A stretch of DNA of 64,000 bases from Alphaproteobacteria bacterium (GTDB lineage: Bacteria; Pseudomonadota; Alphaproteobacteria; CALKHQ01): the NCBI GenBank assembly GCA_965227515.1, contig CBDDFZ010000001.1, forward strand, positions 384,001 to 448,000, given 5' to 3'. Position 1 is the stretch's first letter. Every line of letters starts with the position of its first letter. Of the stretch, positions 14,074 through 23,568 are shown in pieces. The position numbers were made by a program, and so were the translations under genes. The notes beneath the pieces are model-generated. The model was given only the letters and a program-made list of their open reading frames with translations, was not told where the DNA came from and made no database searches.

Positions 14074-14843
<770 letters not shown>

Positions 14844-14847
<4 letters not shown>

Positions 14848-16043
14848 CTGCTCCTCCGCTGGAATGCCATGTCAGCGACGACCGCCGAGACCAGGACGAC
14901 GGCGATCACCATCTTCTGCTTCGGCGAGTCGATGTTCAGCATCACCATCCCGCTCTCCAGGCTCTGGATGAACAGCGCGCCCAGCACCGCGCCGAAGATG
15001 GTGCCCACACCGCCGGCCAGCGACGTGCCGCCGACCACGGCCGCCGCGATCACCTGCAACTCGGTCATGGTGCCGGTGGCATTGGTGGCCGCGTTCAGGC
15101 GGGCGGTGATAACGATGGCGGCCAGTCCCGCCAGGAAGCCCATCAAGGTGAAGGTGTGGACCACGACACGGCGGGTGTTGATGCCGACCAGCTCGGCGGA
15201 ATCCGGGTTGCCGCCGATGGCGTAGATATAGCGGCCGAACTTGGTGCGCGCGGCCACGAACCCCATCGCCACCGCGACGCCGAGCAGGATCAGCACCGGC
15301 ACGGCGATGCCCATCGGCTCCTCCGACCCCGGCCGGTTGTAACTGTTCATGATCATAACGAAGCCCAGCACCACCACCGACCAGAACACGATCATCGCCG
15401 CTTCCATTTGCGGCGGGCGCACCGGGAAGCCGTAGCGCACGCGCTTGCGGCGGGTATTCAGCATGCCGAGCGAGATCGCGACCACGCCGACGACACCGAC
15501 GATCCAGCTCCAGGTCTCGCCGATGGTACCGAACAGGCCGCCGCCCAGGATCTGGAAGGTCTCGTCCAGCGGCGCGACGGTCACGCCCTGGGTCACCACA
15601 TAGGCGGCGTTGCGATAGAACATCAGCCCGGCCAGGGTGACGATCAGCGCCGGCACCCTGAGGTAGGCGACGATCAGGCCGTTGACCAGGCCCAGCAGGG
15701 CACCGCCGGCCAGCATCGCGACAACCGTGACCCACCAGGCATTGGGATCGTCCAGCCCCAGACCGCGGAGCTGGAGCACCGCGCCGCAGACACCGATGAA
15801 GCCGAGCAGCGACCCGACCGAGATGTCGATGTTGCGGGTCACGATCACCAGCACCATGCCGGTGGCCATGATGCCGACGGTGGCGAACTGAACCGACAGG
15901 TTGAAGAGGTTGCGCGCGGTCAGGAAGTTGAAGTCGGTGCCGATGTGGAGGCCGATCCACACCACCGTCATGATGACGATCAGCGCAAGCAGGCGCGGCG
16001 CGATGCCGGTGGCCAACGCGATCTGGCGCATCTGGTCACGCAT
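14844..16043 (-). CDS. Monosaccharide ABC transporter permease (XylH-like)
   Basis: [36 protein letters not shown]; many TM helices. Confidence 0.92.
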
Positions 16044-16068
16044 TGTGAGGCTTCACTCGCAAGCAAGC

Positions 16069-16099
16069 GGCAACCGCCGACACGCAGCCGGCGGTTGCC
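16069..16099. other. Intergenic stem-loop between binding-protein and permease genes
   Basis: GGCAACCGCCG...CGGCGGTTGCC; typical position for an mRNA-stabilising hairpin. Confidence 0.45.
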
Positions 16100-16136
16100 T
16101 CAGGTCAAGACGATGAACTGTCGGCTGCTGGCCCTG

Positions 16137-17177
16137 CTATTGGCACTGGGCCGGCGGGTTCTCGGTCACGCCCTGGCACAGGTCCTCGACGCTGATCCAT
16201 CCGGTATCGACGACGAGGTCCAGGTTGTCGCGGGTGATCGCGATCGGCTCCAGCAGGATCGCCTGCTGCGCCTGGCCAGACGGCGTCTCGTAGTCGACGG
16301 CGCCCTCGAGGTCGGCCATCGCGGTGCCCTCGCCCAGCGCGATGGCGGCTGCCGCGGCGGTCTGGCCCAGAGAGTACGAGTTCTTCCACACCGAGACCGT
16401 CTGGTCGCCGCGGGCGATGCGGTTCAGTGCCGCGATGTCGCCGTCCTGACCCGACAGCGCGATGCCGTGCATGCCCTGGCCGGCCAGCGCGGCGGCGGCA
16501 CCGCCGGCCATGCCGTCGTTCATCGACAGCACCGCATCGATCTCGTTATTGGTCATGGTCAGGATCTGCTCCATGGCCGTCTGCGCCACATCGGGCTTCC
16601 AGTTCTCGATGAATTGCTCGGCCACGACCTCGATGGCACCGCTGTCGATCAGCGGCTGGACGGCCTGCATCTGGCCTTCCTTGAACAGGTTCACGATCGA
16701 CATCGACGGATCGCCGTTGAGGATCGCCCAGTTGCCGGACGGCTGCGCCTGAACCAGCGCCTCGCCCATCAGGCGCCCGACCGCGATGTTGTCGAAGCTG
16801 ACGAAAAGGATGTCGGTCATGTCGACCGGCACGTCATAGGCGATGACAGGTATGCCGGCGGCTTGCGCCATCTGGATGGCCGGCACCACGGCGAAGCTGT
16901 CCTGCGCCAGTACGATCAGCACGTCCGCACCGCCGGTGATCAGGCCCTCGATATCGGTGATCTGCTTCTGCGGGTCGGCCTGGGCGTCAGCGCTTACATA
17001 TTCCCACCCGGTGCCTTCCAGCACATCCAGGATGCCGGCCTCGTCGATCCGCCAGCGTTCTTCCTGAAAATGGCGCCAGCTGACGCCAACGATCTGGTCC
17101 TGGGCGACGGCCGCCGTACTCGTTCCCACGACGGCGCCAGCCAGCGCCGCCACGACTGCACAACGATAGGCGTTCAT
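16137..17177 (-). CDS. Monosaccharide ABC transporter substrate-binding protein (XylF-like)
   Basis: Signal peptide; VGVSW..FQEERW..D, VIAYD, SGQDGD..ALNRI. Confidence 0.9.
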   Translation of the reverse strand: MNAYRCAVVAALAGAVVGTSTAAVAQDQIVGVSWRHFQEERWRIDEAGILDVLEGTGWEYVSADAQADPQKQITDIEGLITGGADVLIVLAQDSFAVVPAIQMAQAAGIPVIAYDVPVDMTDILFVSFDNIAVGRLMGEALVQAQPSGNWAILNGDPSMSIVNLFKEGQMQAVQPLIDSGAIEVVAEQFIENWKPDVAQTAMEQILTMTNNEIDAVLSMNDGMAGGAAAALAGQGMHGIALSGQDGDIAALNRIARGDQTVSVWKNSYSLGQTAAAAAIALGEGTAMADLEGAVDYETPSGQAQQAILLEPIAITRDNLDLVVDTGWISVEDLCQGVTENPPAQCQ

Positions 17178-17377
17178 GGGTCCAACTCCCTCCCGGTAAG
17201 TTTTTGCAGGACTTTTCTTGTGTCCTCGCCCCATGAGTATACGGCGATTCCAGGCCCACGCAATTGCCCACCTTGCGGCCCACCTGTGCTGTACCGCCTC
17301 GCCCAGCCGTAGACTCGACGTTTAGTTGCATTAGTTTAGGCGAAAACTTTCGCCCCGCCGCAGCCTGCCAGCAGGCG

Positions 17378-17749
17378 CTAACCCACGTCCTTCCACACGC
17401 CATTGGTGTCGCGGCAGGCGGTATCGGATTCACTGCGCGTACCGCTGTCCTCCACGAACGTCACTGTGTAGTCGCGGCAGAACAGGCCCGACTGGGTTTG
17501 GTAGGTGCGCACCGGCAACACAGTCCCCTGGTGCCCGGTTGCCGCATCCTGCCAAGATTCCGCCACCCCGCTCGGATTGCCCTCCAGCGCAATCTGGATC
17601 GCGGTGCGAACGACACCGCTGCGCGCGGGTCCGTTGCCGCTGCCGCCGCTATTCAGCGACAGGCACCCGCCCAACAGCATCGCCGTCAGGCAGGCGATTG
17701 TCGTACGCCGATACGCCGACGCGCGCACGGAAACGCTATTGCCAGCCAT
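17378..17749 (-). CDS. Lipoprotein with RT0821/Lpp0805 (17-kDa surface antigen-like) domain
   Basis: Lipobox LGGC; ALE..W..G.V.PVRTY....CRDY...ACR...GVW; start overlaps the Hint gene end. Confidence 0.75.
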   Translation of the reverse strand: MAGNSVSVRASAYRRTTIACLTAMLLGGCLSLNSGGSGNGPARSGVVRTAIQIALEGNPSGVAESWQDAATGHQGTVLPVRTYQTQSGLFCRDYTVTFVEDSGTRSESDTACRDTNGVWKDVG

Positions 17750-18752
17750 TTTCGATCAGCTCCTGCTCCTCGGACGCGGTCAAATCGTCCCCAACCTGAC
17801 GAAGGTCCTCCGGATCGGGCGCCTGCCCATCGAAATAATCGAAGGAACCGCCGCTTTGGCCGGATTGGCCGCTGAAACCGCTTTCACCCGAGCCGCCGCT
17901 GCCGCCTGAACTGCCGCTGCCGCCAGAGCCGCCGGACCCACCACTGCCGCCGGAGCCGCCAGACTCGCCGCCACCCGAGCCCGAACCGCCGGAATGGCCA
18001 TCGTCGTCATCATCGTCGTCGTCGTCATCGCCGCCGCCGGAGCCGGAGTTGCCGCCACCGCCGGGACCGGAATTGCTGCCGCCGCCGTCATCGTCGTCGT
18101 CGTCATCGCCACCCTTGTTGTGCACCAGGTAGCCGTCCGCGAAATACGTATGGTCGCCGGCCAGGAGCAGGTTGAAGACCTCCAGCTCGGGATCGGCGTC
18201 GTGCGCGTCGATGGACACCACCGTCTCGTGGTCCATTTCGACCACCGGTCGCGGCGCCAGGGCGGTCGCCCCTTCGCTAAGGCTCGCCATCTCCACCCGG
18301 CCGCGCGCCAGCCGGTCGCCGGGGGCCAGCGTTGACACCGCCATCGACGCAACCATGCCGGGGGCCTCGCGCCGCGTCGCCATGGCGTCGATCGCTTTCC
18401 AGCCGTTGGCGGTCATGAACGGGTGTTCGTCGGTCACGAACGGACGACCGCCGTTGAAGCCGTAAAGCTTGCGGCTGCCGAGCCGGGGCCGCTCGATGCC
18501 GATCACACGGTTGGCCCGGCCGCCGCGCCCCATTACCAGCATGCCGACGGCGACTTGCGCGATCGGCAGGCTGCGGCCGTTGGCCAGCAGTACCTCGGTC
18601 TCGCCAGTGAAGCACGACGACGCGTGGGCCGCGTTCAGAATGCCGTCGTCCGTGCCGGTGGGCAGGGTGACCGGCGCCGTGGCCATGGTCAGCGCCACCA
18701 GGCTTGTGGTCGCCAGCAGGCGTGCGTTACGGCGGAATGAGTTCCTTGGCAT
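17736..18752 (-). CDS. Secreted Hint-domain (self-cleaving) protein with Gly/Ser/Asp-rich tail
   Basis: Signal peptide ending AHA; Hint block A CFTGETEV, block B VTDEHPF, block F/G VFNL...HTYFADGYLVHN; GGAG RBS. Confidence 0.85.
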   Translation of the reverse strand: MPRNSFRRNARLLATTSLVALTMATAPVTLPTGTDDGILNAAHASSCFTGETEVLLANGRSLPIAQVAVGMLVMGRGGRANRVIGIERPRLGSRKLYGFNGGRPFVTDEHPFMTANGWKAIDAMATRREAPGMVASMAVSTLAPGDRLARGRVEMASLSEGATALAPRPVVEMDHETVVSIDAHDADPELEVFNLLLAGDHTYFADGYLVHNKGGDDDDDDDGGGSNSGPGGGGNSGSGGGDDDDDDDDDDGHSGGSGSGGGESGGSGGSGGSGGSGGSGSSGGSGGSGESGFSGQSGQSGGSFDYFDGQAPDPEDLRQVGDDLTASEEQELIENGWQ

Positions 18753-18802
18753 CTCCAACCTCCCGATCGTCAGCCATGCCGCGGTTATGCCCCGCGGGAA
18801 CA

Positions 18803-18891
18803 ATGCCGATAACGGCGCGACGCGGCTTTCCATCCGCACATGAAACAAGATTAATGTGGCGAAGGAATATGTGCCTGGGCCGTTATCGCAT
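18803..18891. promoter_or_regulatory. Pair of divergent matched motifs GGAA-N11-GCCGTTATCG(G)CAT, candidate ECF promoters
   Basis: Minus strand 18831-18803 and plus strand 18864-18891 share GGAA, identical spacing and an identical 10-mer. Confidence 0.55.
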
Positions 18892-18926
18892 GTGGACAGG
18901 GACAAACATGGCCGAGCCAGCCACGC

Positions 18927-19472
18927 ATGGATGAACTCAGCGGTCGACGCATGATCGAGATGCTGCCACGACTGCGGCGCTTCGCCTATGGCCTGTGCGG
19001 CGATCCGCATGACGCCGACGACCTGGTGCAGCACACATGCCAGCGGGCCATCGACCGGTTCGACAACTGGCGGCCCGGCACCAGCCTGGAAAACTGGATG
19101 TTCGCCATAGCGCGCAATGCCTACCTGGACCTGTACCGCAGCCGACAGGTGCGGGCCGACCATGCCGCCGCCGTGCGCGCCACGACGGACGGCAGCCTGG
19201 ATGGCGAAGGGCGCGCGGAGCATGGCGTGATGATCGGCGAGATTGTGCCGTTGCTTGGCCGGATGCCGGAGGATCAGCGCACTGCCCTGCTGCTGGCCCT
19301 GGTGGAGGGCCTGAGCTACCAGGAAATCGCCGATATCCAGCAGGTCCCGGTCGGCACCGTGACCAGCCGCATCGGCCGTGCCCGTCAGACCCTGCAGCAG
19401 GCCCTGTCCAGCGAGGCCGGTACGCCGCATCAGCGAGAAGGAGGTGAGTTCGATGTCGCACGCCGTCAGTGA
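18927..19472 (+). CDS. ECF RNA polymerase sigma factor
   Basis: LPRLRRFA, DADDLVQ, WMFAIARN, EGLSYQEIA...GTVTSRIGRAR. Confidence 0.93.
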   Translation: MDELSGRRMIEMLPRLRRFAYGLCGDPHDADDLVQHTCQRAIDRFDNWRPGTSLENWMFAIARNAYLDLYRSRQVRADHAAAVRATTDGSLDGEGRAEHGVMIGEIVPLLGRMPEDQRTALLLALVEGLSYQEIADIQQVPVGTVTSRIGRARQTLQQALSSEAGTPHQREGGEFDVARRQ

Positions 19473-20106
19473 CGCGACCCTGATCGCCTACCATCATAAC
19501 CGCCTGTCCGAGCGCGAGGCCAGGGACGTTGCGGCAACCCTGAAGGCGGATCGCGAGGCCGCGGTGCGCCATGCCGCGCTGGTGACCGAGATCTCCCTGC
19601 TTGGCGTCGCGGTCGGCCGCATCGACCGCCTGCCCGCGCCGCCCGAGGCCGAGGACATGATCAGAGCGGCCACCACAAGCGGACCGCGCCGGTCCAACCG
19701 TGGCGCGGCCTGGCTCAGCCGCGGCGCTGCGTTCCAGGCGCTGGCGGCGTCGCTGTTGCTCGCCATCGGTGTTGCCGCCGGCTTCGCGGTGGCCGAATGG
19801 CGCCACGCCCGCGATGCCGAGAGCCAACGTATCGCCGCCCAAGACCTGGAGCAGGCCCGCGCCCACAGCCGGCAGACCGCGCTGAACATGCTGGCCAGCG
19901 GCAACTCCTACCTGCTCGCCGCCGACGACCGGAGCTGGACGGTCGAGGTGATGCCGGTGCGTACGTTCCAGAACGCAAACGGCGCGTTCTGCCGCGAATA
20001 TCGGGAGACCTGGCAGCTCGGCGCCACGGTAGGTGAGAGCTACCGCATCGCCTGCCGCGACGAGGTCGGCAACTGGCAAGCGGTTGCAACGCTGCAAACG
20101 AGCTGA
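19453..20106 (+). CDS. Membrane anti-sigma factor with periplasmic RT0821-like domain
   Basis: N-terminal SDATLIAY...L anti-sigma-like helix, one TM (ALAASLLLAIGVAAG), C-terminal PVRTF...CREY...ACR...GNW; overlaps sigma stop. Confidence 0.8.
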   Translation: MSHAVSDATLIAYHHNRLSEREARDVAATLKADREAAVRHAALVTEISLLGVAVGRIDRLPAPPEAEDMIRAATTSGPRRSNRGAAWLSRGAAFQALAASLLLAIGVAAGFAVAEWRHARDAESQRIAAQDLEQARAHSRQTALNMLASGNSYLLAADDRSWTVEVMPVRTFQNANGAFCREYRETWQLGATVGESYRIACRDEVGNWQAVATLQTS

Positions 20107-20119
20107 TGGCCGAGGGGCG

Positions 20120-21058
20120 GTGCACGTGATCAACGGCAAGGCGCTCGCGGACCAGCGCACGGCGGAAGGCGCCGATCCGCCCGTTATCGACATGCGCGAC
20201 AAAGGCATCGGTGATCTGGTGGTCACCTGCTGGCTCGCCCACAGTGCGGCCGCTGTCGGCCGCGAGCTGCGCATCAACCCGCGTGGACTGGACACGGTGT
20301 GCCATCTGCTCAGTGTCACCGCACCGGTGCTGACCACGGCGGACGCCGACAACTGGGCCAAGACCGACGGCATCGGTCACCGCTTCGAGTACGCGCAGGT
20401 GGCGCAGGGCCGCCCGATGACCCGCTTCGGCGCCTGGGCGCAGTCGCTCGGCCTGCCGGGCCTGCAGCCGGTACGACCGCGCTACAGCGAGGCCACCGAC
20501 GAGGCCGACTGGGCGGAGGAGGCATGGGCGGCCTCGGCCGAGCCGGGCCAGTTGCGGGTCGCCATGTTCCCGGAGGTGGCGTGGCTGATACGGCGCTGGC
20601 CGCCGGCCTATTTCATCGACCTCGCCGACATGCTGAAGGCCAAGGGCGCGGCGATTGTGATGGTCGGGGCAACCAAGGACATGGTCAGCCAGATGGGCAG
20701 CCGCTGGTATGCCGCCTTCCCGCTGCCCCGGACGGCCGCGTTGATGGCCCGCGCCGATATCGTGATCGGCAACGATTCCGGGCCGGCCCATCTGGCCGGC
20801 ACCATCGGCACGCCGACCTTCGTTGCCGCCGGCCCCACCGACGGCGACCTGGTGTTCGCCCATGACGACAATGTGCGCTGCGTCGGCCTGCCGCCGGGAA
20901 GGCTCGCCTGCCACCCCTGCCACTACGCGGTCGCGCGCGGCTATCGCGACGCCTGCAAGGTCGGCGGCTGCCAGGCGCTGATGACGCTGACCCCCGACGC
21001 GGTGTTCGACTGGCTATGGCCGCAAGTGAAGTCTGCGTCGGTACGCAAGGACAGGTGA
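20120..21058 (+). CDS. Glycosyltransferase family 9 (heptosyltransferase-like)
   Basis: GIGDLV, RRWP...F, IGNDSGPAHLA, GPT, Cys cluster CHPC..C..C; GTG start inferred. Confidence 0.82.
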   Translation: MHVINGKALADQRTAEGADPPVIDMRDKGIGDLVVTCWLAHSAAAVGRELRINPRGLDTVCHLLSVTAPVLTTADADNWAKTDGIGHRFEYAQVAQGRPMTRFGAWAQSLGLPGLQPVRPRYSEATDEADWAEEAWAASAEPGQLRVAMFPEVAWLIRRWPPAYFIDLADMLKAKGAAIVMVGATKDMVSQMGSRWYAAFPLPRTAALMARADIVIGNDSGPAHLAGTIGTPTFVAAGPTDGDLVFAHDDNVRCVGLPPGRLACHPCHYAVARGYRDACKVGGCQALMTLTPDAVFDWLWPQVKSASVRKDR

Positions 21059-21146: not shown

Positions 21147-22194
21147 GAGCGGGATCGTTTTATGCGGAAGCGTATCCTGCATTGACGATGTAGTTGTTGC
21201 ATTCGTGTGGCTGGAACGCGTCGAGTAGTTTTCCGATACGCCGCCATGTGTCGTCGATGGTGCGCTCTGCGGCGCGCCTGAGCAGGTGCTTGAGCTTGGC
21301 GAACACCTGCTCGATGGGATTGAGGTCGGGGCTGTAGGGCGGCAGGAAGAGCAGCCTTGCGCCGGCTTGGCGCAGGGCGGCCCGTACGGCCTTGCCCTTG
21401 TGGCTGCCCAGGTTGTCCATGATGACGATGTCGCCGGGTTTGAGCGTCGGCACCAGGATTTGCTCGACATAGGCGAGGAAGGCCTGACCGTTAATCGGGC
21501 CGTCGAAGACGCACGGTGCGGTGAGCTGGTCGCAGCGCAGAGCAGCGAGGAAGGTCAGGGTGCGCCAGCGGCCGTGCGGTGCCTTGCCGACGAGGCGCCG
21601 GCCGCGCCGGCTCCAGCCCCGCAACGGCGCCATGTTGGTCTTGGCCCAGGTCTCGTCAATGAAGACCAGGCGGGCGGGATCAAGTTTCGCCTGATGACGC
21701 TTCCAGCGCGCGCGGCGCCGCGCCACGTCGGGACGATCCTGCTCGCTGGCGAACGCGGTTTTTTTTGAAGCTCAATCCCTCGGCATGCACAAAGCGCCAG
21801 ATCGCGCCGTAGCTCACCCGGATGCCGCGATCGGCCAACTCGCGCTGCAAGGAGCGCAAGGGAAGGTGCGGCTCGGCAGCCAAACGAGCCTGCACGAAGT
21901 CGCGATGCGGCGCCAATATGATCCGCTTGTGGCCACCGACCTTGCCCGGCGCAACGCTCCCGGTGCGCCGATATCGCTGCGACCACTTCACAACCGCAGA
22001 CACGCTCACATCGAACGCGGATGCCACAGAGCGAACCGTCTCACCGGCCATCACCCGGGCAACAGCACGCTCACGAAGATCATTCGAATAGGGTCGACCC
22101 ATCGCGCCAGCCTCCTCTCAAGACCAACACGTTGAATCAGATTGCCACCCGAGTCGGGAATCCCCTTTCGATTCTTCCAAAAAAGACCCCGCTC
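21147..22194 (-). mobile_element. IS630-family insertion sequence
   Basis: TA duplication (21145-46, 22195-96) in CTAG context; TIRs GAGCGGGATCGTTTT / GAGCGGGGTCTTTTT. Confidence 0.9.
21160..22102 (-). CDS. IS630 transposase encoded as two ORFs joined by -1 slippage at an A8 run (21759-21766)
   Basis: OrfA MGRPYSNDLRER (HTH); OrfB FIDET, MDNL..HK, LPPYSPDLNPIE. Confidence 0.88.
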
Positions 22195-22266: not shown

Positions 22267-23568
22267 TCAAGTACTCGTCGATAGCCTGTTGGCAATGGGG
22301 TGATCGGGTTGAAGAGAGACATTATCTTGTTCAGCCTTCAGCCGAACGAAACCTCTAATTACCTTCTCGGTATACTCATACCAACCTTGGCGTGTCCCGG
22401 TTAATATCGACCCATGGGCTGGCTGTTTCAGTCTATTAATTCTTTGATTGAATTGTGTACGACTCAGGGCCGGACCAGAACATTCTTTCATTATTCTATT
22501 GTATGAGCCAAAAATATCTGTGCTACGTCGTTTCAATTCATGACCGTCCGCTGCTGCCCAAAGTATATATTTGTAGTCATCGCTGTATTTTTGCGTTGCA
22601 GTCTCATACGGGCCTTTTAGCCGCATTTCCATCGCGTCAGCAGCATCCGCCATAGCTTGTTCAAAAAGAGGAGCGGTAACCTTACCTCCGTTTTCTGCAT
22701 GAAAGACTCTCCAAAATAGTTTCTCCGAAATAAAATGAACGTAATGAGGAAAGCCATCGCTAATACGAGCTATTCTTATTATCGTAGTTTCATCGATTTC
22801 TATCTCAAGTTTATTTGCCGCAAATTTTACTATTTCAAACCTCGCCTCCCACGGCAATTGCCCGAGATTAACCGTATGAAAATATCTATCGGCGCTGCCA
22901 TGAGCAGCCATAATAGCATCTACGCTTTCACCTAAACCACAAAAAATAAATTTAGATGAAATGTGCTTGTCTGATATCTGTTTTATAAAATTGGTAAACA
23001 GTTCTTGTTCTCCCCTATTTACAATTTGATCAAACTCATCGATTATCACTACAGGCTGATCAGCATACGTTTCGGATAGAAATTTCATCAATCGAACGGC
23101 TTCATTTACTGAACTTGGCTCATTTATTTGACCTTCATGCATTGTCTTGCTACTACCCAAGGTAATGCCAAATTTCGCAAACTCTACCTTCTGCTGCTTT
23201 ATATTCGCAATGACAAGAGGGCTTTTTGCTGCTGCCTCGTCAAAAATGTCACGAACTACGCTGCCAAAACTACTTTGTGTATCGCATCCAATAACAATTG
23301 GATCTGCACTTGCCCCAGCGGCGATACCAAAAGCAGCTGTTTGAGCAAGAGAAGACTTACCCACACCTCTCAATCCGTGTATTAATACATGTCGACCTTG
23401 TTGATATAATGCTTGCTTGATACCTGCTAATTGTTCAGCACGACCTCGGAGGAATTCTTCTGATTGCAATGGCTGAGCGGGCGACAATACTTTCGCCAAA
23501 GCCATACCGAACTGATGCTCTTGCTGAGTTGATACGGGGCCCAAGCCTGGAAGGATTTTGTTTGCCAT
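22267..23568 (-). CDS. AAA+/P-loop ATPase (Orc1/Cdc6- or STAND-like), AT-rich
   Basis: F.GR, Walker A GLRGVGKSS, Walker B IIDEFD, SDGFPHY helix motif; low GC. Confidence 0.8.
   Translation of the reverse strand: MANKILPGLGPVSTQQEHQFGMALAKVLSPAQPLQSEEFLRGRAEQLAGIKQALYQQGRHVLIHGLRGVGKSSLAQTAAFGIAAGASADPIVIGCDTQSSFGSVVRDIFDEAAAKSPLVIANIKQQKVEFAKFGITLGSSKTMHEGQINEPSSVNEAVRLMKFLSETYADQPVVIIDEFDQIVNRGEQELFTNFIKQISDKHISSKFIFCGLGESVDAIMAAHGSADRYFHTVNLGQLPWEARFEIVKFAANKLEIEIDETTIIRIARISDGFPHYVHFISEKLFWRVFHAENGGKVTAPLFEQAMADAADAMEMRLKGPYETATQKYSDDYKYILWAAADGHELKRRSTDIFGSYNRIMKECSGPALSRTQFNQRINRLKQPAHGSILTGTRQGWYEYTEKVIRGFVRLKAEQDNVSLQPDHPIANRLSTST

Follow-up and report, generated by a model that had tools for sequence, protein, structure and literature searches.

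The subject of this report is one gene in a 64,000-nucleotide stretch of an alphaproteobacterial genome (contig CBDDFZ010000001.1, positions 384,001 to 448,000 of the forward strand; this whole stretch is called the window below). Its product, P0001, reads as a small secreted protein in which a predicted Hint domain lies directly behind the signal peptide and is followed by a long acidic tail. The start codon at 18752 matches the aligned starts of 20 homologues, and from there the chain runs through a signal-like N-terminus (basic, then hydrophobic) ending in AHA44, Ser45-Ser46, the Hint domain and Lys213 into the tail, with the following segments.

17736..18752, minus strand: gene of P0001, a signal-Hint-acidic tail protein of 338 residues (translation, homologues, alignment A1)
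18621..18752, minus strand: signal peptide, residues 1-44, ending AHA (modelled helix 6-24; AxA motif by eye)
18117..18614, minus strand: BIL-like Hint domain (BIL, bacterial intein-like), Cys47-Asn212, 166 residues (profile, model, Foldseek)
18114..18116, minus strand: Lys213, the +1 residue, constant with this Hint subfamily
17787..18113, minus strand: polyanionic Gly/Ser/Asp linker, residues 214-322 (TRF repeats; predicted local distance difference test score, pLDDT, <50)
17739..17786, minus strand: conserved C-terminal motif DLTASEEQELIENGWQ (alignment A2; modelled helix 326-334)

An AlphaFold2 model computed on A1 places a helix at residues 6-24, is confident from about residue 45 to 215 (pLDDT >90, with 10-residue block means mostly of 92-98), predicts a disordered tail at 218-318 (pLDDT <50) and closes with a helix at 326-334 (block mean 81). 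A preliminary description of this DNA had read the same layout from the letters (signal ...NAAHA-SS, CFTGETEV, TDEH and YLVHN-KGGDDDDDDD, with the Hint directly behind the signal peptide), and the translation bears it out, with Cys47, T107-x-x-H110, His211-Asn212 and Lys213 at the corresponding positions; the poly-Asp/Gly/Ser tail of about 125 residues that it saw ending in a short helix is K213-Q338, 126 residues, and such a helix is modelled.

Identity of the Hint domain and its two junctions

Because the single Pfam models fall short of their cut-offs, the assignment of P0001 to the Hint superfamily rests on the family profile and the fold. Hom_end_hint scores 31.7 bits against a cut-off of 32.1, Vint 21.6 against 27 and Hint_2 17.8 against 28.4, the Hint model is also weak, and every Pfam match of P0001 belongs to the Hint clan; NCBIfam adds weak matches to intein N- and C-terminal models. 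A database search with residues 1-215 of P0001 finds 46 homologues, many of which do pass the Pfam Hint cut-offs; family members carry the names "hypothetical protein", "Hint domain-containing protein" or "Hint domain-containing homing endonuclease", and the atlas clusters are nameless. The profile built from A1, an alignment of 21 sequences, matches PI-SceI with an E-value of 2.9e-10, Tetrahymena BIL2 with 1.9e-8 and, weakly, the C. thermocellum BIL (2LWY) with 0.014. Foldseek returns 56 matches of the P0001 model in the PDB at E<=0.001, and those listed are inteins, BIL and Hedgehog domains: BIL2 is best (6TMM/6Y75, E 2.9e-8, TMt 0.72-0.77), followed by the gp41-1, DnaB and RecA mini-inteins (TMt 0.72-0.80 over BIL2 and the mini-inteins), 2LWY (E 1.7e-5) and the Hedgehog domain 1AT0 (E 2.2e-5). 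The preliminary description had called this segment a Hint domain; single Pfam models leave that call just below cut-off, and the family profile and the fold sustain it.

T107, E109, H110, H211, N212 and K213 are invariant in A1, and C47 is present wherever its column is covered; since the Cys, TxxH and HN-K columns are invariant across the family wherever covered, the Hint features of P0001 go beyond chance. Model and alignment together predict that P0001 has the Hint fold with all catalytic positions for both junctions, and by its features, a His-Asn end and no +1 nucleophile, the domain fits a type-A BIL. Some relatives carry decayed Hint domains (P0136, P0157, P0158, P0198 and P0202, with HD for HN and internal deletions, by eye), which would suit the idea that the Hint is non-catalytic, a binding or scaffold domain in a protein that functions at full length. 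We consider this very unlikely for P0001, as all catalytic positions are intact and invariant in the protein and its clade, and the decayed copies have lost catalytic positions, as expected were catalysis under selection.

The +1 residue is Lys in 80 of the 81 Hint copies of the family, the single exception being a mis-hit of the regular expression, and it is missing from Hint-less homologues along with the Hint. Seven proteins of the same Hint subfamily stop right at ...HNK-stop (L062, L063, L067, L073, L077, L087 and L096); they consist of an N-terminal part of 90-330 residues with the Hint last, so that the whole C-extein is one Lys. Such ...His-Asn-Lys-stop ends bring to mind the C-terminal Lys of Braun lipoprotein. 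Tandem Hint domains are linked by K-G-S-(G)-S-S-C or K-G-G-C (P0178, P0025, P0043, L081 and L089), and in P0178 two consecutive Hints stand between the signal peptide and the motif-bearing tail. P0001 itself has Lys213, and no Cys, Ser or Thr, at +1. The preliminary description took the domain as set up to cleave rather than to splice, which agrees with the published behaviour of type-A BIL domains: these end in His-Asn, lack a +1 nucleophile and give mainly cleavage products (Amitai et al. 2003; Dassa et al. 2004, as summarised in a review).

The same Lys is the centre of a rival account, in which it attacks the Cys47 thioester, by its epsilon-amine or, after Asn cyclisation, by its alpha-amine, so that the tail becomes joined, possibly by an isopeptide bond, to the N-extein or to some other acyl group. 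This rival is live because BIL2, the closest solved relative, is reported by its authors to use a Lys epsilon-amine as nucleophile and to splice with formation of an isopeptide bond; BIL2 is both the best structural match and a strong profile match, and type-A BILs can, by the same review-level sources, ligate by aminolysis. The near-constancy of the Lys, kept even in proteins that end ...HNK-stop and absent from Hint-less forms, is also consistent with it, as is the strict conservation of Cys1 and block B. We nevertheless judge ligation unlikely: the N-extein left by signal-peptide removal is just 2-5 residues long, so that ligation would change little, Hint-less homologues manage without any such modification, and in the BIL2 report as available the nucleophilic Lys sits in a ubiquitin-like domain and is not shown as the +1 residue.

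At the other junction, an AxA motif stands 1-5 residues ahead of Cys1 across the Hint-tail family (by eye), and in P0001 signal peptidase would cut after AHA44. An uncleaved N-terminus could instead serve as a membrane anchor, from which a Hedgehog-style thioester, resolved by water or a periplasmic nucleophile, would free the protein, perhaps in a thiol- or redox-responsive manner. The invariant Cys1 and TxxH would suit such a release, a long, moderately conserved stretch separates the hydrophobic core from Cys1, and about ten family members have Cys-Cys at the Hint junction (by eye), which suggests redox sensitivity. We give this account little credence, since the AxA is well conserved in nearly all members, it directly precedes the tail in Hint-less forms, where a signal-peptidase site is its only possible role, and the invariant His-Asn is unneeded for N-terminal release alone.

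A scan of one genome per species yields 75 loci with this Hint subfamily, which by our reading of protein architecture divide into 53 that encode signal-Hint-acidic tail proteins, from Alpha- and Gammaproteobacteria, and 22 in which the same Hint lies inside or ends other proteins. The latter come from Rhodobiaceae, Kaistiaceae, Chloroflexota, Actinomycetota and Saccharibacteria and include giant Bacteroidota proteins with two tandem Hints. Tail-type copies cluster in a quick tree of 81 Hint domains, with 4 label changes against a shuffle mean of 21 and none of 500 shuffles as low. A weak second Hint-like match (E 0.0035, 36% identity over residues 31-121) lies on a small second contig (G000:C2:14575-14841, minus strand).

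The tail motif with and without the Hint domain

The tail K213-Q338 consists to 88% of D, E, G, S and N, has a net charge of -21 outside its last 25 residues, and has its linker coded by short tandem DNA repeats (TRF periods 9, 18, 24 and 27). Tails are hypervariable across homologues, with lengths of 53-376 residues and a median of 145, and a Pfam scan of P0001 finds no match outside the Hint region. The preliminary description had seen no recognisable toxin domain here, and the low-complexity composition and the modelled disorder agree. P0001 ends in DLTASEEQELIENGWQ, for which the family consensus is G-x-D-L-S-x-x-E-E-x-x-x-I-x-x-G-W-x; the motif closes 39 of 52 complete N-terminal-type proteins by regular expression and two more by eye, in a set chosen by script of which 4 really have other architectures. 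The window's own genome has a single copy, in the P0001 gene (E 2e-10; next best 0.2). The tail end is the putative conserved functional part of P0001.

We find that this motif also occurs without the Hint. An exhaustive HMMER search of 1.84 billion (1.84e9) representatives with a profile of A2, an alignment of the last 40 residues of 36 tail proteins, gives 78 matches at E<=0.001, 11 with and 67 without a Hint-clan Pfam match. Among the 67, 11 are of <=70 residues and probably fragments, 5 have decayed Hint remnants by eye, and about 35 start with Met and a signal-like N-terminus that leads straight into the Gly/Ser/Asp-rich linker and the motif (by eye). This refutes the view that the motif never occurs without a Hint, which had come from a word-indexed search (77 matches, 75 with a Hint by Pfam and 2 by eye) that scored only the 7999 candidates sharing most words. 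Within the class, the A2 search finds the motif in 13 of 401 genomes.

Four genomes (G176, G043, G346 and G095) have a motif gene without a Hint, a divergent sigma gene and an anti-sigma gene with a 17-kDa-like domain; a downstream 17-kDa-like lipoprotein follows in three, while G095 has its extra 17-kDa-like gene past the anti-sigma gene, on the opposite strand. The G043 and G346 proteins run from signal...AYA through an Asp or Ser and GGEGGEGG to an acidic tail and ISKGWE, the AxA directly preceding the tail in Hint-less forms; both genomes also have an extra signal-plus-acidic-tail paralogue without the terminal motif. On the G346 protein, positions 9-47 and 211-324 of the A1 profile, in whose numbering 48 is Cys1, 209 the Asn and 210 the Lys, align to consecutive residues, so this form is without exactly the Cys1 to Asn-Lys segment. 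The alignments therefore present the Hint plus its Lys as an optional and precisely bounded cassette. The preliminary description had proposed searching with the tail end for homologues with and without a Hint, and both kinds exist; it had seen the Hint either as a pro-domain or as an insert into a pre-existing signal-tail protein, and module homologues that differ by precisely this segment fit both.

A metagenome scan with the Hint-less proteins adds 13 loci, all 13 with a 17-kDa-like domain. At five of them (L121-L124 and L128) a Hint-tail gene is followed by a Hint-less tail gene and then the lipoprotein, the Hint form of L124 being cut by the contig end; L121 and L128 also have the sigma and anti-sigma genes and L122 a partial sigma gene, and at L131 both tail genes are without a Hint. 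Tandem pairs of tail-motif genes, Hint with Hint or Hint with Hint-less, are seen at L035, L036, L039, L042, L048 and L051 as well as at L121-L124 and L128. A further conserved element, (R)RxALARLGLxxxxAYxxPxxLTLSxxxA, resembles a twin-arginine signal peptide and occurs in P0129, P0131, P0132, P0135, P0139, P0155 and L116; some Hint-less tail proteins have it at the N-terminus, but in others it is internal, and an LLASTS-type signal of the usual sort precedes it. In a quick tree of 50 sigma factors, with sampling biased toward Hint-bearing loci, the four Hint-less modules are scattered among the Hint-bearing ones, with 3 changes of which at least 2 are forced by well-supported branches; G176 is sister to L030/L032 with a support of 99 (Shimodaira-Hasegawa-like approximate likelihood ratio test, SH-aLRT).

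A sigma-factor module around the Hint gene

The Hint gene is part of a conserved four-gene module with genes for a sigma factor of the extracytoplasmic function (ECF) type, its anti-sigma factor and a lipoprotein. The other features of the module in the window are these.

17378..17749, minus strand: lipoprotein P0002, with an LGGC lipobox by eye and a 17kDa_Anti_2 domain (PF16998, 34.7 vs 26.6 bits)
18927..19472, plus strand: ECF sigma factor P0003 (Sigma70_r2, r4_2 E 1e-16; TIGR02937 83 vs 42.9 bits)
19453..20106, plus strand: anti-sigma factor P0004, with one hydrophobic span by eye (weak NF052375 match)
18807..18831, minus strand: promoter-like motif of ECF type, GGAA-N13-CGTTATCG, directed at the Hint gene, 55 nt ahead (pattern scan)
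18864..18888, plus strand: that motif again, directed at the sigma gene, 39 nt ahead (pattern scan)

The Hint gene's stop and the start of P0002 overlap by 14 nt, and the sigma/anti-sigma pair is divergent from the Hint gene, 174 bp upstream. The domain of P0002 is modelled with confidence (pLDDT 95.9) as a helix with an antiparallel sheet, for which Foldseek gives no match at E<=0.001, VIA-align a best Z of 6.1, within background, and sequence search no relative among solved structures (best E 0.45). The C-terminal, periplasmic domain of P0004 and the lipoprotein are homologues by profile-profile comparison (A3 with A4 in hhalign, probability 99.9%, E 3.4e-35), and inspection of P0004 by eye shows no zinc-finger Cys/His motif.

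A tblastn search with the products of the window's four module genes finds a sigma gene at 46 of the 53 signal-Hint-tail loci and at none of the 22 loci of other architecture; 43 of the 46 have it upstream in divergent orientation. For a 17-kDa-like domain the counts are 48 of 53 against 0 of 22; 33 loci carry it downstream on the strand of the Hint gene, and at 40 the anti-sigma gene encodes it. Carriers of the module include culturable Oceanibacterium, Pelagibius and Zavarzinia strains. Exceptions to this layout are three Aeromonas loci, L066, L078, L083 and L100, and 4 of 6 genomes in a separate class-level sample, the window's own included, share it. Within Aeromonas, motif-bearing L100 has an adjacent lipoprotein and the complete, motif-less L080 and L084 are without it; the 17-kDa-like domain is wholly absent from 2 of 4 genomes, one of them being the genome of L082, where the contig end truncates the protein. 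About eight further 17-kDa-antigen-like proteins are encoded in the window's own genome, on G000 C1 (2993199-2993726, 1227084-1227488, 3212485-3213021, 1947599-1948039, 982763-983143, 1323443-1323907 and 971189-971845).

The preliminary description lacks this ECF sigma/anti-sigma/lipoprotein setting, the chief pointer to function. The setting also bears on whether P0001 could be a polymorphic-toxin-like protein of small size, whose pretoxin-type Hint frees a C-terminal effector against competitors. PF07591 (PT-HINT) does match distant homologues, and giant Bacteroidota proteins carry the same Hint subfamily in mid-chain; but the tail has no folded domain and what is conserved in it is a helix of 16 residues, the gene that follows is related by paralogy to the anti-sigma sensor domain rather than being of immunity type, and 46 of 53 loci have a regulatory context. 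We regard the toxin account as extremely unlikely.

GGAA-N13-CGTTATCG has two matches in the 64-kb window, where 0.01 are expected by chance, and both fall in the 174-bp spacer, one per strand. Across loci, 15 of 40 sigma-Hint spacers contain GGGAA..TGTT, a number that 20 shuffles never bring above 6, about half of the loci have GGAA(G/T)AA-N-GTGTT both ways with one copy toward each gene, and GGAATAA..GTGTT is also present in the spacers of L116-L118, with a GGAATAA..ACGTT variant in L120. A scan of 17000-20300 for sigma-70 promoters and terminators gives no match. Since one promoter motif is directed at both the sigma gene and the Hint gene, sigma-driven transcription of the Hint gene is probable, and the Hint operon would be a direct target of its neighbour.

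The closest description we find is that of group ECF26 in the supplement of Casas-Pastor et al. (2021; PMC7826278): proteobacterial and autoregulated, with a promoter of GGAATAAA at -35 and GTT at -10, an anti-sigma gene with one membrane span at +1 and a subgroup-specific conserved secreted protein at -1. The motif of the module resembles GGAATAAA/GTT, the window copy being the shorter-spaced variant GGAA-N13-CGTTATCG, and the layout, with the anti-sigma at +1 and a secreted protein at -1, is alike by description; the window differs in that its anti-sigma shows no zinc-finger motif by eye. Hint, intein and 17 kDa are absent from the main text of that reclassification, and the part of its supplement available to us, which stops short of the later groups, has one 17-kDa mention, a 17-kDa surface antigen in the context of subgroup ECF26s12. 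The literature within our coverage nowhere mentions 17kDa_Anti_2 or PF16998, links no Hint or BIL domain to ECF sigma modules and does not describe the tail motif; prior mention outside this coverage is possible.

Sugar ABC (ATP-binding cassette) transporter genes, apparently unrelated, flank the module at 14074-17234 (minus strand; a Peripla_BP_4 binding protein, E 1.6e-53, with permease and ATPase by eye). On the other side, a family-9 glycosyltransferase gene (20033-21058) adjoins an IS630-type transposase at 21160-22102 (minus strand), which is split into two overlapping frames, helix-turn-helix at 21680-22102 and DDE_3 at 21160-21726, as either a programmed frameshift or a broken copy would explain. 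Just past the transposase, 22267-23568 (minus strand) encodes a 433-residue AAA/STAND-like ATPase (AAA, AAA_16, weak nSTAND1).

Proposed processing and comparison with known systems

The explanation that best accounts for the whole, and that we hold to be probable, is that P0001 is the secreted output of an ECF sigma module, with the Hint as an optional pro-domain that removes itself. In this scheme the neighbouring sigma probably drives transcription of P0001, which would be exported via Sec and cut by signal peptidase after AHA44. The Hint would then fold in the periplasm and remove itself in the manner of a type-A BIL: judging from the invariant residues, cyclisation of Asn212, helped by His211, would break the Asn212-Lys213 bond, and Cys47, with T107 and H110, could form a thioester with the 2-residue N-extein that is hydrolysed or passed to the new amino group. 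The expected product is a 126-residue polyanionic, disordered tail with the conserved short helix at its end, approximately what the Hint-less homologues would make straight from signal-peptide cleavage. It is because these Hint-less forms give essentially the same tail directly that we read the Hint plus Lys as an optional pro-domain cassette. The tail helix would most likely dock on the 17-kDa-antigen-like domain of the co-transcribed lipoprotein and of the periplasmic part of the anti-sigma, and so feed back on the sigma; this docking is the weakest step of the scheme, suggested by co-occurrence, including the small Aeromonas contrast.

Several observations weigh against this pro-domain scheme. 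No single Pfam Hint model reaches its gathering cut-off for P0001. The gap from hydrophobic core to AxA is long in P0001, about 14 residues, with the cleavage site placed by eye. Cys1 and block B are strictly conserved despite an N-extein of just 2-5 residues, which would be unexpected if simple C-terminal cleavage were all that the domain does, and the invariant Lys hints at chemistry beyond simple cleavage. P0004 is without the consensus W-x-N-P-x-S-G loop, 7 of the 53 tail-type loci have no sigma gene within 4 kb, and the 17-kDa-like domain, with about ten copies in the window's genome, is not module-specific.

A more elaborate form of the scheme is a periplasmic autocrine peptide circuit of Gram-negative bacteria. 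Here the sigma would induce the pro-protein, Hint autoprocessing, possibly with the +1 Lys as nucleophile in the way reported for BIL2, would gate release of the tail, the helix would be the ligand of the anti-sigma sensor with the lipoprotein as co-receptor or decoy, and Hint-bearing and Hint-less paralogues in one operon would be slow- and fast-release versions; we consider this unlikely.

About twenty years have passed since BIL domains became known, and the reviews consulted name no cellular role for them beyond adding protein variability. The Hint-tail family offers a natural test case whose cargo, the conserved end of the tail, is defined; its gene is found within one kind of four-gene module in Hint-bearing and in Hint-less form, at some loci as neighbours, and it is this combination of defined cargo, paired forms and regulatory neighbourhood that makes what the pro-domain adds (timing, redox or nucleophile sensing, or nothing) directly testable. 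The module further suggests that an ECF anti-sigma factor may have a peptide ligand, and the invariant +1 Lys, together with the likeness to the Lys-isopeptide-making BIL2, could reveal further bacterial Hint chemistry.

Compared with published type-A BIL domains, as the review describes them, the P0001 domain shares the Hint fold, the N-terminal Cys, the C-terminal His-Asn and the lack of a +1 Cys, Ser or Thr, and likewise is carried in variable secreted bacterial proteins with C-terminal Asn cleavage as the expected main reaction. It differs from them in its place right after a signal peptide, where the N-extein has 2-5 residues, in the invariant Lys and disordered acidic tail that follow, in its ECF sigma module and in the existence of Hint-less versions of the gene. 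BIL2 (Tetrahymena thermophila BUBL1; 6TMM, 6Y75) has the same intein-like Cys1 and terminal Asn; however, it is a eukaryotic, cytoplasmic domain with ubiquitin-like domains on its flanks and shares 16-20% identity, and P0001 has no ubiquitin-like cargo. A canonical class 1 intein was considered and is ruled out, because P0001 has no +1 nucleophile, no conserved host protein, the host being a small secreted low-complexity protein, and no endonuclease insert. Pretoxin Hints (PF07591) belong to the same superfamily, distant PF07591 homologues also end in HN-K, and they are thought to release a C-terminal module; P0001 is not a pretoxin Hint protein because it has no toxin domain or immunity gene, and it is small and sits in a regulatory neighbourhood. 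The C-terminal autoprocessing domain of Hedgehog (1AT0, E 2.2e-5) is likewise a Hint, and the secreted signalling protein that carries it matures through its self-processing, but it releases an N-terminal part and adds cholesterol to it, whereas P0001 has a terminal Asn and no sterol-recognition region and is of other polarity, because its cargo is C-terminal.

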